Positions 7,233 through 23,408 of a stretch of 34,961 nt of DNA are shown piece after piece. The notes beneath the pieces were generated by a model. That model did no database searches and was not told where the DNA came from. It was given only the letters and a program-made list of their open reading frames with translations. Position numbers and translations under genes: made by a program. Source of the DNA: Smithella sp. (GTDB lineage: Bacteria; Desulfobacterota; Syntrophia; Syntrophales; Smithellaceae); assembly GCA_039679815.1 (NCBI GenBank), contig JBDKUG010000119.1:1-34961 (forward strand). The letters run 5' to 3'. The stretch's first letter is position 1, and every line of letters begins with the position of its first letter.

Positions 7233-7326
7233 GGAGAGATGTCTGAGTGGCCGAAGGAGCACGACTGGAAATCGTGTGTATGCCCACAAAGGTGTACCGC
7301 GGGTTCGAATCCCGCTCTCTCCGCCA
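7233..7326 (+). tRNA. tRNA-Ser (anticodon GGA)
   Basis: Acceptor GGAGAGA/TCTCTCC+GCCA, anticodon arm CACGA-CT-GGA-AA-TCGTG, long variable arm and GGTTCGAATCC T-loop. Confidence 0.96.
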
Positions 7327-7335
7327 GAATATGAT

Positions 7336-7363
7336 GCAGAGACGCTGCAAGCAGCGTCTCTGC
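7336..7363. repeat. Perfect palindrome between the two tRNA genes
   Basis: GCAGAGACGCTGC-AA-GCAGCGTCTCTGC (13-bp arms), with no U-tract. Confidence 0.7.
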
Positions 7364-7382
7364 TGTGTTACAGCAAAAATCC

Positions 7383-7476
7383 GGAGAGGTACCGAAGTGG
7401 TCGTAACGGGATCGACTCGAAATCGATTTGGGGGCCACAAGCTCCCACGGGGGTTCGAATCCCCCTCTCTCCGCCA
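7383..7476 (+). tRNA. tRNA-Ser (anticodon CGA)
   Basis: Acceptor GGAGAGG/TCTCTCC+GCCA, anticodon arm ATCGA-CT-CGA-AA-TCGAT, long variable arm and GGTTCGAATCC. Confidence 0.96.
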
Positions 7477-7610
7477 GATTTCAATGCAAAGGCAGACGAC
7501 TCCTGCGGCCGGTGTTTTCATTACCGGATTCCATGATCCAGCAAAAATTTGGGTTGATTCCTGTCGATTTATCCATTAAGAGTTTCTGCGTGACAGTCAT
7601 TATGGGAATA

Positions 7611-7707
7611 TGGCCGGGTCCCGTACAACGAAGGCTTGTGAACCCCGTCAGGTCCGGAAGGAAGCAGCGGCAGCAAATCCCGTCGTGTGTTGCGGTAAAC
7701 CCGGTCA
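7611..7707 (+). ncRNA. ffs: Signal recognition particle 4.5S RNA
   Basis: Conserved domain IV GTCAGGTCCGGAAGGAAGCAGC, closing stem TGGCCGGGT/ACCCGGTCA, located upstream of dnaX. Confidence 0.93.
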
Positions 7708-7764
7708 CCAGTATATAAATGATAAAATTCCGTGGCTTCTAAAAATCAGTGAATTGAGGTTTCA

Positions 7765-18570: not shown

Positions 18571-18636
18571 TCGCGGCACAAATTTGTTGAAAATACAGGT
18601 TTGTGCTTAATGGTTTGCAAAGAAAGGACTTTTCAC

Positions 18637-20757
18637 ATGAGTTTTTCCCAACGGATCTTTTGCGGACAGGTGACGCCGGATGATGTCGGACGCAGCGTGC
18701 AGCTTTGCGGCTGGGTGGATGCTTACCGGGATCACGGCGGTCTGTTGTTTATTCACCTGCGCGACCGCAGCGGCATCATGCAGATTGTTTTCAGTCCGGA
18801 AATCGCCTCAGCCGATCTGTGCCGGAAGGCTGCCTCTCTTCGCACGGAATATTGCATTTCCATTGTCGGTGATGTCAAAAAACGCCTCGCGGGCACGGAA
18901 AACCCCAACATCGAGACAGGAAATATTGAAGTCATGGTCACCCAATTGACCGTGCTTTCCGAATCCGACGCGCTGCCCTTTGCCGTTTCCGACAAGGCCA
19001 TGGTCGCAGGCTCGTCAACAGCGGGTGCTGACAATGTGGCCGAGGATTTGAGGCTCCAGTACCGATACCTGGACATCCGCCGTCCGCAGATGCGCGACAA
19101 TCTCATGGCCCGTCACCGTATTTTTCAGTGCGTTCGCGAATTTCTCGATTCAAGGGGTTTCGTGGAAATTGAAACGCCGGTCCTGACGGCAAGCACACCG
19201 GAAGGAGCTCGCGATTACCTTGTGCCCAGCCGGGTCCATCCGCAGAATTTTTATGCCCTGCCGCAGTCGCCGCAGCTTTTCAAACAGCTGTTGATGATCG
19301 GCGGAATGGAACGTTATTTCCAGCTGGCGCGCTGCTTCCGCGATGAAGATTTGCGGCCCAACCGGCAGCCGGAGTTTACCCAGCTTGATCTTGAAGCTTC
19401 GTTCATCGACGAAGAATTTCTCTACGAGCTGATTGAAGAACTGACCGTAAAGATGTTCGCGGTTGGCGGCATTGATCTTTCCCGCCCTTTCCCCCGCATG
19501 ACCTATGCGGAGGCAATGAATACGACCGGTTCCGACCGTCCCGACCTGCGCTTCGGTCTGCGCTTTGTCGATGTGACGGATGTGTTTTCAAAAACCAATT
19601 ATTCAATTTTCCGCCAGATCCTTCAGCGTGGCGGGTGCATCAAGGGCATCAACATCAGGGGCCAGTCCGAAAAACTCAGCAAGAACGTCCTGCAGAATGA
19701 ATACGCCAGGGAGATCGTGCCGTCGTTTGGAGCAAGGGGCATGACCTGGATGCGCGCCGAAGGCGGTAAACTGGAATCCAATATTGTACAGTTTTTCAGT
19801 AGTGAGGAGCTGGAAGCGCTGTGGAAAAAATTCAATGTGGCCGACGGGGATGTTCTGATTATGATTGCCGACTCCTCATACAGCGTCGTTACGTCCGCAC
19901 TTGGTCAGCTACGTCTGCATCTGGCGAATCGCCTGGAGCTCATTGACGAAAACTGTTTTTATCCGGTCTGGATCACGGAATTTCCGCTGTTTGAACCTAC
20001 GGATGAGGGGGGTGTTACCTCCAGCCACCATCCGTTTACCGCGCCGGATCGTGTTGATTTTGATCCGAAAAATATTGAAGAGTTGCTCTCGCTTCATTCT
20101 CTCGCTTACGATCTGGTGATGAACGGCGAGGAGCTGGGAGGCGGAAGTATCCGCATCAACAACCGCGATGTTCAGCGTAAAATATTTGCCGCGCTGGGGC
20201 TCAATGAAGAAGAAATGAGGGAAAAATTCGGATTTTTCCTGCGGGCTTTTGATTTTGGCGCGCCGCCGCACGGCGGTCTCGCCCTCGGGATGGACCGCAC
20301 GGTGTCGATGATCCTGCGGACCCCATCTATCCGGGACGTCATTGCCTTTCCCAAAAACCGCAGCGCAAGCTGTCCCCTGACCGGTGCGCCCTCCGCGGTG
20401 AAGCGCGGACAACTGGCCGAACTGGGGCTTTTAAATCTGGGCGGTCAGGATGTCCTGCCCGGAACCGCCGAAAAGGAAAACAAGGTCGATCATTTGTCCT
20501 GGGTCTCGCGCATCGGTATTGCCGCCCATGAACGCCCCGTTATCGAAGAAATTATTGCCGAGGCGGAGGAACTGGCTTTGATCGCCTTCCAGAAGGCAGG
20601 CAAAGAAGAACCGATGTTTACCGTCGCCCCTGTTTCAAACCGCACACGGCCCGGTACAGAAGAAAAACGATCGGCGCTTGCGCAAAAAGGTCAGCTGCTC
20701 AAAAGCGCGCCTTCGGTAAAGGGGAATTACTTTAAAGTCGCCAGCATTCTGGAATAA
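18637..20757 (+). CDS. aspS: Non-discriminating aspartyl-tRNA(Asp/Asn) synthetase with C-terminal GatC-like fusion
   Basis: RDHGG (His typical of non-discriminating enzymes), LPQSPQLFKQLLM, FRDEDLRPNRQPEFTQLDLE and PPHGGLALGMDR motifs, plus an extra ~95-aa GatC-like tail. ATG 18637 has an AGGA SD. Confidence 0.93.
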   Translation: MSFSQRIFCGQVTPDDVGRSVQLCGWVDAYRDHGGLLFIHLRDRSGIMQIVFSPEIASADLCRKAASLRTEYCISIVGDVKKRLAGTENPNIETGNIEVMVTQLTVLSESDALPFAVSDKAMVAGSSTAGADNVAEDLRLQYRYLDIRRPQMRDNLMARHRIFQCVREFLDSRGFVEIETPVLTASTPEGARDYLVPSRVHPQNFYALPQSPQLFKQLLMIGGMERYFQLARCFRDEDLRPNRQPEFTQLDLEASFIDEEFLYELIEELTVKMFAVGGIDLSRPFPRMTYAEAMNTTGSDRPDLRFGLRFVDVTDVFSKTNYSIFRQILQRGGCIKGINIRGQSEKLSKNVLQNEYAREIVPSFGARGMTWMRAEGGKLESNIVQFFSSEELEALWKKFNVADGDVLIMIADSSYSVVTSALGQLRLHLANRLELIDENCFYPVWITEFPLFEPTDEGGVTSSHHPFTAPDRVDFDPKNIEELLSLHSLAYDLVMNGEELGGGSIRINNRDVQRKIFAALGLNEEEMREKFGFFLRAFDFGAPPHGGLALGMDRTVSMILRTPSIRDVIAFPKNRSASCPLTGAPSAVKRGQLAELGLLNLGGQDVLPGTAEKENKVDHLSWVSRIGIAAHERPVIEEIIAEAEELALIAFQKAGKEEPMFTVAPVSNRTRPGTEEKRSALAQKGQLLKSAPSVKGNYFKVASILE

Positions 20758-20772
20758 CAGGGAGACAGTTCT

Positions 20773-21972
20773 ATGGATTCTATTTTTGTTTATCTCAATC
20801 CCGAAACAGCGTCCGAAGGGAGCGGTCCTCTGCAGGGTTTGAAAATTGCGATTCAGCCCAACATATCCGCATCAGGCTGGCCAACGGACGCCGGCTCCAA
20901 CGCCCTCATCAATTTTAAAGCGCTCGAAGACGCAACGCTGGTGAACAGGCTCCGTGAGGGGGGAGCCGTGATTCAAGGTTTAACCCACATGAGTGAATTC
21001 GGTTTTGGTCTAGCGGGAAGCAGAGCCGGGGATGCCGTCAGGCGCGGCGCCGTGGATGCTGAACTGGTTTTAGACCTGATGGGGGAAAGCCGCCTGGCTG
21101 CCCAGCGCACCTCCGTTTGCGGTTTCAAGCCCAGCTACGGTCTGATATCCCGCTATGGTCTCATCGGTCTGATTCCATCGATGGAATGCTGTGGCGTTCT
21201 TTCCCGCAGTCTGAAAAATATCCGGGAGGTGGTGAAGATCATAGCCGGTCCGGATGAAAGGGATTTTGCGCTTCCCGATGAAAAGCCGCTGGACTTTTCC
21301 CCGCAAAAAATGAATCCGGAAAAAACAACCGTTGGTGTGATCACCGAAACGAAAAGCGGACTGCAAGGTGATCAGGAAGGCGCTTTTCATGCCGCTATCG
21401 ATGAGCTGAAAGAAACGGGTTTCCGCATCAAAGAAATGTCTTTTCCCGATTTTTCTCTTTTTTCACTGGTCCATAAAATCGTGGGTTCCGTCGAGGCGTC
21501 CTCCTGCGCCGGGCGCTACGATTCGGTACGCTATGGTCATCGTGTGCTGGGCGCAAAAAACTGGAACGAAATGTACCTGTCCTCGCGCGAAGAGTCCTTT
21601 GGCCTGCTTGTGAAAAGCTATCTGTTTCAGGGCGCGTTTTTCCAGTTTCAGCGCTACGACGCCTATGAAGACGCCTGCCGTATCCGCGCGAGGCTGCACG
21701 CGGATATGCAGAAAACCATTTCGAAGGTGGATTTCCTGGTTCTCCCGGCTGCAAACGAAGTTCCAACAAACACAACGGCTTCGCTTGCCGGCACATACGA
21801 ACAATTTTCCCCGACGGTTTTTGCCAATGTGACCGGCCAGCCCGCGCTGTACCTGCCGCCTGAGTCCGGCCAGGAGCGATTCGGGTTTCAGCTTTCCGGG
21901 CCGAGGCTCAGCGACGCGCGGCTTTTCGCGCTGGGCGAGCATCTTCTGAATCTGCGCCAGGGAGGTAAATAG
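20773..21972 (+). CDS. gatA: Divergent, truncated GatA (amidase fold), catalytic residues apparently lost
   Basis: GFKPSYGLISRYGL, EASSCAGRYDSVRYG and FANVTGQPA match GatA. The amidase signature is degenerate. Located between aspS-gatC and gatB. Confidence 0.82.
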   Translation: MDSIFVYLNPETASEGSGPLQGLKIAIQPNISASGWPTDAGSNALINFKALEDATLVNRLREGGAVIQGLTHMSEFGFGLAGSRAGDAVRRGAVDAELVLDLMGESRLAAQRTSVCGFKPSYGLISRYGLIGLIPSMECCGVLSRSLKNIREVVKIIAGPDERDFALPDEKPLDFSPQKMNPEKTTVGVITETKSGLQGDQEGAFHAAIDELKETGFRIKEMSFPDFSLFSLVHKIVGSVEASSCAGRYDSVRYGHRVLGAKNWNEMYLSSREESFGLLVKSYLFQGAFFQFQRYDAYEDACRIRARLHADMQKTISKVDFLVLPAANEVPTNTTASLAGTYEQFSPTVFANVTGQPALYLPPESGQERFGFQLSGPRLSDARLFALGEHLLNLRQGGK

Positions 21973-21974
21973 TG

Positions 21975-23408
21975 ATGGAATTTGAAGCGGTCATCGGACT
22001 GGAAATCCATGTTGAACTCAATTGCAAAACAAAATTATTCTGCGATTGCCCCAATAATCCCGGCGACGAACCGAACATCAACACCTGTCCTGTCTGCCTG
22101 TGGTTCCCGGGCGCCGTCCCCCGCTTGAGCCAGGAGGCGTTGGAAAAGGCAGCGATTTTATGCCTGGCACTGGGCGCCGAGCTCCAGCCAAAAAGCGCTT
22201 TTGACCAGAAGGTCTATTATTATCCGGATCTGCCGAAAGGCTACCAGTTGTCCCAGGCCCATCTTCCGCTTTCCCGGGGCGGCGGCATTGATATTACGGA
22301 CGAAGACGGCACAACGAAAAGACTGCGCATTCATCACATCCACATGGAGGAAGATGTCGCCAAGCTGGTGCATGAAATGGAGGGGCGTGTGCCGATCAGT
22401 CTGGTGGATTTCAACCGTGCCGGCTCGCCGCTGGTGGAAATTGTCACAGAGCCGGATTTTCGCACGCCATATCAGGCAATGGAATTTTTAAAGGCGCTGC
22501 GGACACAGGTTCGCTACGCGGGCTCCTCCGAGTGCAGCATGGAAAATGGCACCATGCGCGTCGATGCCAATATTTCCATTCGTCCGAAAGGCACCGGACA
22601 GATGAATACCAAGGTGGAAGTTAAAAACATGAATTCTGTCCGTCATGTGGGCGATGCCATTGCGCATGAAATCACCCGCCAGAGCGCATGTGTCCAGGCG
22701 AATGAAGCCGTGGTACTGCATACCCGTTTGTGGGACCCGGATAAAAAAGTCACCCTGCCGATGCGGGCCAAGTTTGAAGGCCCGTGCGTTCCCGATCCGA
22801 CGGTGCCGGCAATCGAGTTGTCGGCGCAGGAGATCGAACTTCTGCGCTCGCGGCTTCCGGAAATGCCCGCCGCAAGGGCCAAGCGCTTTGTTTTACAGCA
22901 TGGCCTGACCGGTGAAGAAGCAGCCTTTTTGAGCACCGATCCTGAGGTTGCGGGTTATTTTGAAGCGCTACTTACAGAAGGGATCGCGCCCCGCACCGCC
23001 ATGCACTGGCTTACCACGCAGCTTATTCCGGCTGTCAGGGACCGCGGCCAGGAACTGGGCACAACGCCTGTGACCCCGGCCCGCTTCGCCGTGCTGCTGA
23101 AAATGCTGTCCAATGACGAAATCAACGCCAACGCAGCCCGCGAAGTGCTGTTCCATCTGTTTGACTCTGACCAAGCGCCGGAATCCATTGTACATGCTAA
23201 GGGTTTTAAGCAGGTTTCCGACCGCGCTGAACTTGATTCGCTTATCGACAGGGTTTTGGGTGAACAGCCGTCGGCAGTCAATGATTTCCGTGCCGGCCAA
23301 AGCAAAGCCATGGGCTTTCTGATCGGCCAGGTCATGCAGGCCTCCGGCGGGAAAGCCAATCCGAAAATCATCCGTGAACTGCTGGCAAAAAAACTGGGAA
23401 AGATTTAA
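21975..23408 (+). CDS. gatB: Asp-tRNA(Asn)/Glu-tRNA(Gln) amidotransferase subunit B
   Basis: VIGLEIHVEL..KTKLFC, YPDLPKGYQ, HMEED, DFNRAG.PLVEIVTEPD and VEVKNMNS motifs, plus a YqeY-like tail. Start is ATG 21975 or GTG 21972. Confidence 0.94.
   Translation: MEFEAVIGLEIHVELNCKTKLFCDCPNNPGDEPNINTCPVCLWFPGAVPRLSQEALEKAAILCLALGAELQPKSAFDQKVYYYPDLPKGYQLSQAHLPLSRGGGIDITDEDGTTKRLRIHHIHMEEDVAKLVHEMEGRVPISLVDFNRAGSPLVEIVTEPDFRTPYQAMEFLKALRTQVRYAGSSECSMENGTMRVDANISIRPKGTGQMNTKVEVKNMNSVRHVGDAIAHEITRQSACVQANEAVVLHTRLWDPDKKVTLPMRAKFEGPCVPDPTVPAIELSAQEIELLRSRLPEMPAARAKRFVLQHGLTGEEAAFLSTDPEVAGYFEALLTEGIAPRTAMHWLTTQLIPAVRDRGQELGTTPVTPARFAVLLKMLSNDEINANAAREVLFHLFDSDQAPESIVHAKGFKQVSDRAELDSLIDRVLGEQPSAVNDFRAGQSKAMGFLIGQVMQASGGKANPKIIRELLAKKLGKI

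Follow-up and report, generated by a model that had tools for sequence, protein, structure and literature searches.

Does an aspartyl-transfer RNA (aspartyl-tRNA) synthetase gene that runs on in frame into a GatC-like sequence encode a true two-part protein, and what could such a protein be doing in a bacterium? This question is raised by a locus of Smithella sp. (NCBI GenBank assembly GCA_039679815.1) on contig JBDKUG010000119.1, of which positions 1 to 34,961 of the forward strand were analysed; this whole stretch of 34,961 nucleotides is referred to here as the window. A sequence-only reading had claimed that a GatC-like domain is fused to the C-terminus of the aspartyl-tRNA synthetase (AspRS) and that it sits where gatC normally precedes gatA. 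The present analysis shows that the AspRS-GatC fusion is real and conserved. It heads a three-gene cassette, aspS-gatC', gatA' and gatB2, in which the order of the genes is strictly conserved. The explanation that we favour, and hold to be rather probable, is that the operon 18637-23408 specifies a covalently tethered, glutamine-independent second Asn-transamidosome.

The reading frame of the fusion is the first point to be settled. The AspRS homology had been placed as ending near 20430, and the match to TIGR00459 does end at 20424. From there the raw letters are open, with zero stops, as far as the TAA at 20755-20757, which bears out the claim that no stop codon lies at the junction. The interval 20473-20757, proposed as the added domain, comprises 94 codons and the stop and reads as it had been quoted. 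The mechanical call of the open reading frame (ORF) is 18601..20757 on the plus strand, with 718 aa beginning at TTG. The start is likely to be the ATG at 18637, since 706 aa is far more frequent than any other length in the 120 relatives listed; homologues of about 700 aa had been named as one check on the junction. The protein thus consists of a complete bacterial AspRS plus ~115 additional residues.

The tail was matched by 306 protein clusters at E <= 0.001, and 140 related loci were found in species-representative genomes. Eighty of these loci were kept, and the counts of fusion frames and flanking genes refer to them. AspRS and tail share one ORF in 78 of the 80, closed genomes included; the exceptions are a locus at a contig start (L092) and a copy with a 1-nt frameshift (L104). 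Assembled contigs of three DNA runs, one of which may be the source sample, span the junction with no insertions or deletions, and the stop or frameshift that would have separated two genes was seen in none of them. One run contig of 4067 bases shows no differences over window positions 19900-20748. Third codon positions account for 4 of the 5 differences that a strain variant co-occurring in one run shows inside the tail, and for all 7 that it shows at the AspRS end of the fusion. A search for shorter tail proteins gave 52 matches, with no clear stand-alone GatC' among them; most of the matches come from contigs no longer than a few kb and are perhaps cut by the contig end, and two carry the NCBI name 'GatCAB subunit C, partial'.

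It could be argued that the junction is a misassembled or frameshifted boundary between two genes, or that the locus is a decaying duplicate. The window comes from a metagenome-assembled genome (MAG) of 406 contigs with 4.7% contamination, and the frameshifted relative at L104 could be read in the same direction. On the other hand, the fused frame recurs across the related loci, closed genomes among them, and independent run contigs span the junction. The ratio of nonsynonymous to synonymous substitution rates (dN/dS), measured against 5 relatives, is well below 1 in all parts: 0.04-0.08 for AspRS, 0.12-0.15 for the tail, 0.16-0.26 for GatA' and 0.09-0.13 for GatB2. All parts of the cassette are under purifying selection and are not decaying, and an artefact is extremely improbable.

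Syntrophorhabdus aromaticivorans UI was at one point taken as a candidate for a natural split between AspRS and tail, and this candidate was rejected. The organism carries the cassette twice in near-identical form (L104, L105), and the apparent split in L104 is the 1-nt frameshift at the AspRS/tail junction in the copy that lies at a scaffold end. That frameshift may stem from an error in the draft, or the copy may be a duplicate of recent date that is decaying.

The identity of the tail depends on which model is consulted. A catalogued family, NF009460 (PRK12820), bears the name 'bifunctional aspartyl-tRNA synthetase/aspartyl/glutamyl-tRNA amidotransferase subunit C' and has the same architecture as the window fusion. 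The window protein matches it from end to end, residues 5-718 falling on profile positions 10-723 of 723 with 1347.2 bits, and the tail alone gives 121.9 bits on profile positions 613-723. The tail is 24% identical to the genome's own GatC over the full tail length, the C-terminal motif included. For a profile built from five tails the top solved structure is Staphylococcus aureus GatC (2df4_C), with positions 18-110 on 5-95. Taken together, these matches support the claim that the tail is homologous to GatC and continues a full AspRS in frame. The generic GatC models are less favourable, and here the scores weigh against that identity. PF02686 gives 19.7 bits on the tail alone, over profile positions 30-66 only, and 15.9 bits in the whole fusion protein, the cut-off being 23; a precomputed PF02686 match exists in just 3 of the 120 listed relatives. 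TIGR00135 gives 16.8 bits with a cut-off of 47.1. The match to the S. aureus structure, at E 0.029, counts as weak, and hhalign of the tail with the genome's own GatC returns a probability of 36% with E 3.7e-4 over 46 columns. A profile or structure match to GatC had been proposed as the deciding check, and its outcome is divided: both generic profiles stay below their thresholds, but a GatC is the best structure and is covered over nearly its full length. By the generic models the tail is weakly GatC-like.

The curated cut-off of NF009460 is 1379 bits, which the window protein misses. Seven further fusion proteins score 1175.6-1315.5 bits and are likewise under it, so that the cut-off appears to be tighter than its family. 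Because all 8 scored members miss the cut-off, the model seldom names its own family and the GatC part goes unannotated in databases. GatC is absent from every source name shown for the 120 listed relatives, all near full length, and they are named plain aspartate--tRNA ligase. Since the architecture is already catalogued as NF009460/PRK12820, the fusion itself is no discovery. The model covers the fusion alone, and GatA' and the second GatB lie outside its description. A full-text literature search, which did not cover supplementary tables, found no description of a natural AspRS-GatC fusion; Tables S1/S2 of PMC4206432 list genomes with a second AspRS.

The AspRS part looks competent for catalysis on its sequence features. 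It scores 694.2 bits with TIGR00459 (cut-off 373.85) and 758.1 bits with NF001750 (cut-off 443). The canonical AspRS of the same genome, on contig C379, is 47.7% identical in a pairwise alignment and ends exactly where the extension begins, and the core motifs are the same in both. Compared with the canonical enzyme, the fused one (AspRS2) carries 12 extra residues, inserted at residues ~119-130 (window 18950-19000) between the anticodon-binding domain and the catalytic core. The AlphaFold2 (AF2) model of the full-length fusion is poor, with a mean predicted local distance difference test (pLDDT) of 59.4 and a predicted template modelling score (pTM) of 0.45, and within this poor model pLDDT is low at residues 569-612, the linker region. 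AspRS works as a dimer, and the quality of the model could be ascribed to this and to the shallow alignment of 28 rows.

The fusion stop is followed after 15 bases by the start of gatA', and gatB2 comes directly after gatA'. Where 1300 nt or more of downstream sequence is available (70 loci), gatA' lies 3' of the fusion in every case, and where there are 2750 nt or more (64 loci), gatB2 is always next. The claim that the GatC-like domain stands where gatC precedes gatA therefore holds as far as gatA- and gatB-like genes lie directly downstream, but gatA' is no normal gatA: the protein has 399 aa and scores 230 bits with TIGR00132, for which the cut-off is 481.1. Nor is the fused GatC a replacement for the organism's own gatC, as a canonical gatC-gatA-gatB operon exists elsewhere in the genome. 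The start of GatB2 is more likely to be the ATG at 21975, because Met2 is invariant in the family. The short spacer after the fusion differs between strains: contigs of two runs part from the window after the fusion stop (20757/20758) and rejoin it at the gatA' start.

GatA' is clearly related to GatA in its predicted fold. Its AF2 model has a pLDDT of 73.7 and a pTM of 0.82. In a Foldseek search with this model, GatA chains from GatCAB or GatFAB fill the first ten places, headed by 3h0l_A (E 1.9e-28). The residue changes were read from a 72-sequence family alignment and from HMMER alignments to solved GatA, in the numbering of S. aureus GatA, in which residues 79, 154 and 178 are presumably the catalytic triad. 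The equivalent of Lys79 is Q in 70 of the 72 GatA' sequences and that of Ser178 is E in all 72; the position of the cis-Ser, Ser154, is S in only 50, within a degenerate motif. The replacements extend to the equivalents of Tyr309 (H in 70/72), Arg358 (Y or F in 69/72) and Asp425 (F in 66/72), which are described as substrate-binding residues of S. aureus GatA (bioRxiv 10.1101/733030). The signature GGSSGGS has become AGSRAGD in the window protein, with ~20 residues deleted ahead of it, and ~50 residues present at the N-terminus of GatA are missing from GatA'. At the same sites the canonical GatA of the genome still has K, S, Y, R and D. A 31-sequence alignment of GatA' has 59 invariant columns. 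With a GatA' profile searched against 1.84 billion representatives, the GatA' family runs from 579 down to ~245 bits, and canonical GatA reaches at most 239 bits. GatA' derives from GatA, and judged by these residues it cannot act as a glutaminase of the classical kind.

In a genome of the same genus (G240, locus L046) GatA' at first looked truncated; this was discarded as a variant, since the record has a run of N there and no deletion. The GatA' profile also pulled in 125 GatA-like representatives of 380-530 aa, 45 of which miss at least one triad residue, many with Glu at the nucleophile position. The triad-less representatives include P0205, P0207, P0208, P0211, P0217, P0234, P0262, P0272 and P0320; two, from MAGs of Dethiobacteria and Peptococcales, are named 'amidase family protein'. 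GatA paralogues without the full triad may be more widespread.

GatB2 scores 474.8 bits with TIGR00133 (cut-off 314.8) and has both the GatB_N catalytic domain and the YqeY-like tail, with matches to PF02934 and PF02637. It aligns over its full length with Aquifex aeolicus GatB at 408 bits, keeping most of the motifs common to both, and it is 37% identical to the genome's canonical GatB. The family alignment has a mean column identity of 79%, the highest among the cassette parts downstream of AspRS. With its kinase/amidotransferase motifs and tRNA-binding tail retained, GatB2 looks competent.

The tail was modelled with GatA' and GatB2(1-300) in three runs, with a 31-row alignment for each chain. 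The ipSAE (interaction prediction score from aligned errors) is 0.92, compared with 0.59 for the best of 3 controls, in which GatA' was replaced, and 0.00 for each of the two unrelated partners. The existence of solved GatCAB structures may explain the value of 0.92. The mark used for calling a complex is reached by 58 of 80 solved complexes and by 2 of 110 mismatched pairs. At least 88% of contacts are shared between the three runs, with partner pLDDT of at least 81, and tail residues 21-111 contact both GatA' and GatB2 in the prediction, residues 1-20 not being named in the interface. Invariant GatA' residues are concentrated at the predicted interface (23/74 as compared to 36/325, Fisher p = 8e-5, a statistic that is not independent of the model inputs), which fits with GatA' being kept as the structural partner of the tail. 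Binding of the tail to GatA' and GatB2 is thus supported in silico.

The cassette does not stand alone in its genome. Contig C62 carries a canonical gatC-gatA-gatB operon with scores of 79.7, 633.7 and 633.7 bits, all over the cut-offs, and the canonical AspRS on C379 scores 799 bits. Glutaminyl-tRNA synthetase (GlnRS) is present. No asparaginyl-tRNA synthetase (AsnRS) over the cut-off was found in this genome, and the canonical AspRS could be its non-discriminating enzyme. Because the genome is a fragmented and partly contaminated MAG, other carriers of the cassette were checked as well. In nine of them canonical GatA scores 609-655 bits, over the cut-off, and the best stretch of the cassette copy gives 163-217 bits. 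Canonical GatA is therefore found elsewhere in 10/10 cassette genomes tested, the window's included; closed carriers with canonical GatA are Syntrophus buswellii DM-2, the ORM2a MAG and the single-contig genome G264. The cassette is an accessory addition and not a replacement of the canonical set. At four loci a canonical-type AspRS lies 0.2-4 kb from the cassette (L063 2128-3927, L081 1330-3117, L071 9964-11739 and L076 12082-12333). In L063, L071 and L081 it is 46% identical to AspRS2 over the full length, and in L076 it is a contig-end fragment only, 56% identical to AspRS2.

With a full canonical set at hand, one may ask if the cassette is just an ordinary second glutamine-dependent GatCAB, in which GatA' hydrolyses glutamine by an unrecognised mechanism or the canonical GatA is recruited by the fused GatC and GatB2, with GatA' reduced to a minor role. 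Other bacteria such as Clostridium acetobutylicum do have additional copies of AspRS and GatCAB (PMC4206432), canonical GatA is available in all carriers tested, and the tail still scored 0.59 in the control with GatA' replaced, from which it follows that much of the predicted tail contact is with GatB2. Against this stand the family-wide replacement of the triad Lys, the nucleophile Ser and the three glutamine-binding residues, the strict co-inheritance of GatA' with the fusion (70/70) and the clustering of invariant GatA' residues at the predicted tail interface. An ordinary copy is accordingly quite unlikely.

The cassette is rare and its distribution patchy. Of 301 genomes taken as a sample of the phylum, 5 carry it, the window's own counted. 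It was found in 1 of 2 other genomes of the same genus and in 0 of 3 genomes from other genera of the same family. The main carriers are Smithella (96% tail identity), Syntrophus, Syntrophaceae, Syntrophorhabdus, Desulfatiglans and Desulfatitalea. Some carrier MAGs are labelled outside Thermodesulfobacteriota (Dehalococcoidia, Pirellulaceae, Verrucomicrobia and others), and these labels may reflect horizontal transfer or misbinning. The runs that contain the window stretch are from wastewater, bioreactor, sediment and aquatic metagenomes, and several of them may be the source sample. Around the cassette no gene is conserved, the best flanking family being present in 7 of the 80 loci. Neither biosynthetic nor toxin genes travel with the cassette in these loci, nor was a conserved accessory gene seen in them from which a new donor could come. 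Scanning of the window and of 32 related loci revealed no dedicated tRNA gene by the cassette, three unrelated tRNAs being present in the 32 loci; the window's genome has one tRNA-Asn and one tRNA-Asp. Rfam at the gathering threshold gave no riboswitch or T-box upstream of the fusion, and the promoter and terminator scans gave no more than chance.

Such a mobile-looking pattern, together with varied contexts lacking conserved neighbours and redundancy with the canonical set, is what could be expected of a non-catalytic or protective module, serving as a back-up of AspRS/GatCAB that resists natural inhibitors or GatA-mimicking toxins or as a means of sequestering Asp-tRNA(Asn). A toxin that takes the place of GatA in GatCAB is in fact described (10.1101/733030). 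However, the loci contain no accompanying biosynthetic or toxin genes, the strong conservation of the AspRS core and of the GatB2 motifs argues for catalysis, and loss of the glutaminase residues would be unexpected in a simple resistant copy. We regard a protective role as distinctly improbable.

For a covalently tethered, glutamine-independent Asn-transamidosome the following course of events can be pictured. The GatC tail would wrap the GatA'/GatB2 interface as GatC does in GatCAB, and because of this the AspRS would be permanently tethered to the amidotransferase through the ~20-residue linker and the tail. Asp-tRNA(Asn) made by the AspRS would then be handed directly to GatB2. GatA' would serve as a scaffold, no longer hydrolysing glutamine. 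The amide nitrogen would most likely come from free ammonia and not from glutamine, because GatA' is without the glutaminase residues; this is the least secure step. More tentatively, and with rather less confidence than we have in the tethered complex, the cassette may be a mobile module whose GatA subunit gave up glutamine hydrolysis and evolved a new and conserved Q/E/H/Y/F pocket, the donor being ammonia or another compound.

Several observations have to be set against this picture. The replacement residues Q, E, H, Y/F and F are themselves conserved, and a new ligand fits this as well as a filled-in pocket does. At about residues 267-280 of GatB2 a conserved GatB stretch is altered, with a 3-residue deletion, and the altered form is invariant in the family. 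The complex with GatA' replaced still scores 0.59, and since GatCAB structures have been solved, the score may reflect likeness to the binding mode of GatC and not this particular pair. The run X15, labelled RNA, is probably DNA and covers the stretch in parts only, so it allows no conclusion on expression. A need for the pathway does not explain where the cassette occurs, because neither lack of AsnRS nor lack of an AsnB-type asparagine synthetase tracks its presence. AsnRS is present in 2 of 8 carriers tested, and an AsnB-type synthetase over the cut-off in 4 of 10, these 'present' calls being soft as TIGR01536 covers non-AsnB paralogues too. The cassette-free family relatives G082 and G180 and the same-genus G296 lack AsnRS too, and therefore their canonical AspRS must serve tRNA-Asn; these relatives manage with the canonical set. 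Finally, Tse8 of Pseudomonas aeruginosa, a GatA-like type VI effector with the amidase fold, is described as binding GatB and GatC while having no glutaminase and divergent glutamine-binding residues, and in GatCAB it is proposed to lower the supply of Asn-tRNA(Asn) (10.1101/733030), for which reason a dead GatA is not obviously compatible with activity. The likeness has its limits, Tse8 being compared by description only: it keeps the Ser-cisSer-Lys triad and poisons foreign GatCAB, whereas GatA' is without the Lys and the nucleophile Ser and is co-inherited with GatB2 and GatC'.

Some of these observations would be accommodated by a neo-functionalised tRNA-dependent enzyme, in which the GatA' pocket binds a new donor or ligand or the product formed on the tRNA is not asparagine. 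The near-invariance of the replacing residues (Q 70/72, E 72/72, H 70/72, Y/F 69/72, F 66/72), the purifying selection on GatA', the family-invariant change in GatB2 and the presence of the canonical pathway in every carrier tested are all in line with it. It is nevertheless opposed by the lack of a dedicated tRNA gene near the cassette in the window and 32 loci, by the single tRNA-Asn and tRNA-Asp of the genome, by the unaltered core motifs of AspRS, by the retention of the remaining GatB2 motifs common with A. aeolicus GatB, and by the lack of a conserved donor-supplying gene in the 80 loci. A new function of this kind is considered unlikely, and the tethered, glutamine-independent Asn-transamidosome remains the explanation that we prefer.

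The same four protein parts are known from the Asn-transamidosome of P. aeruginosa (4WJ3), which is composed of non-discriminating AspRS (ND-AspRS) and GatCAB together with tRNA-Asn and whose AspRS likewise bears the GAD domain. GatA' matches 4wj3_A (Foldseek E 2.9e-25) and GatB2 matches 4wj3_B. The stoichiometry of the Asn-transamidosome is given as 2:2:2 (10.1101/733030), and assembly of the known particle is described as dependent on tRNA-Asn binding (PMC9499178). The known transamidosome is made of separate polypeptides, whereas in the cassette AspRS and GatC form one chain and GatA' is without the glutaminase residues. Similarly, the canonical GatCAB (C62) and AspRS (C379) of the window's own genome are homologous to the cassette proteins but unfused, with the GatA sites intact.

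Fusions that involve GatC or an aminoacyl-tRNA synthetase are on record. Yeast mitochondrial GatF is a GatC-like subunit with an extension, Mycobacterium smegmatis has a gatC-gatA fusion and Deinococcus radiodurans has a GlnRS with a YqeY/GatB-like tail (PMC4027206, PMC7541841 and PMC1865053, cited jointly). They show that such fusions are possible, but none joins AspRS to GatC or is paired with a triad-less GatA. Clostridium acetobutylicum has additional copies of AspRS and GatCAB, the acquisition of an extra AspRS being described as rare in bacteria (PMC4206432). These extra copies and the second AspRS of Thermus and Deinococcus are a precedent for an AspRS dedicated to the indirect Asn pathway, but they are unfused; the Thermus/Deinococcus enzyme is moreover of the archaeal type without the GAD domain, whereas the cassette AspRS is of the bacterial type. 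What is new relative to the non-covalent transamidosome is the covalent tethering and the triad-less GatA. The coordinates of the cassette features are collected in Table 1.

Table 1. Features of the aspS-gatC', gatA', gatB2 cassette in the window
Feature	Coordinates	Strand	Evidence
aspS2-gatC' fusion gene	18637..20757	+	706 aa from ATG; single ORF and end-to-end match to NF009460
AspRS part, bacterial type (OB anticodon-binding domain, class II core, GAD insertion)	18637..20421	+	PF01336, PF00152 and PF02938, all present; TIGR00459
Linker, ~20 residues, from AspRS C-terminus to GatC-like part	20422..20481	+	canonical AspRS ends here
GatC-like module, ~91 aa	20482..20754	+	alignment with the genome's own GatC; PDB match 2df4_C
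gatA' (399-aa GatA paralogue)	20773..21972	+	TIGR00132 230 bits; Foldseek; residue changes
gatB2 (478 aa from GTG 21972)	21972..23408	+	TIGR00133 474.8 bits vs 314.8

Rfam applied to the whole window gave two tRNA-Ser genes and a signal recognition particle (SRP) RNA, all away from the cassette; the tRNA-Ser genes gga and cga and, after them, the small SRP RNA lie at 7233-7709. Elsewhere in the genome ARAGORN predicted two selenocysteine tRNA (tRNA-SeC) genes, at C62:6276-6373 and C64:270-365, the former downstream of the canonical gatCAB operon at a distance of ~1.8 kb. It also predicted a tRNA at C96:586-664 with the four-base anticodon gtaa and no assigned identity, perhaps a prediction artefact. 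The GlnRS match at C165:658-2232 on the minus strand scores 784 bits and contains one in-frame TGA, which could be a sequencing error, a selenocysteine or the mark of a broken gene. Contigs C171 and C220 each carry a glutamyl-tRNA synthetase (GluRS)-like gene in a frame of 506 aa together with a tRNA-Glu(ctc); the two genes may be genuine paralogues, or the contigs may be strain duplicates within the MAG.

In the usual description, a transamidosome is a particle held together non-covalently, which channels the mischarged tRNA so as to keep it from the ribosome, and a natural AspRS-GatC fusion is the covalent extreme of such channelling. If GatA' is really dead as a glutaminase, the complex would show the GatB reaction running without its glutaminase, a question that to our knowledge has until now been approached solely in vitro, by means of ammonium salts. 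Conclusions of the kind 'one gatCAB, one AspRS', when drawn from genomes of these lineages, are wrong. The cassette would also be a compact, portable three-gene route to Asn-tRNA(Asn), of interest for translation engineering. A rationale based on saving of energy is speculation, consistent with the carrier taxa and with the wastewater, bioreactor and sediment runs, several of which are perhaps the source sample. For energy-starved syntrophs like Smithella, Syntrophus and Syntrophorhabdus, a glutamine-independent amidotransferase, if it is indeed what the cassette encodes, could spare the ATP that is spent on glutamine synthesis.

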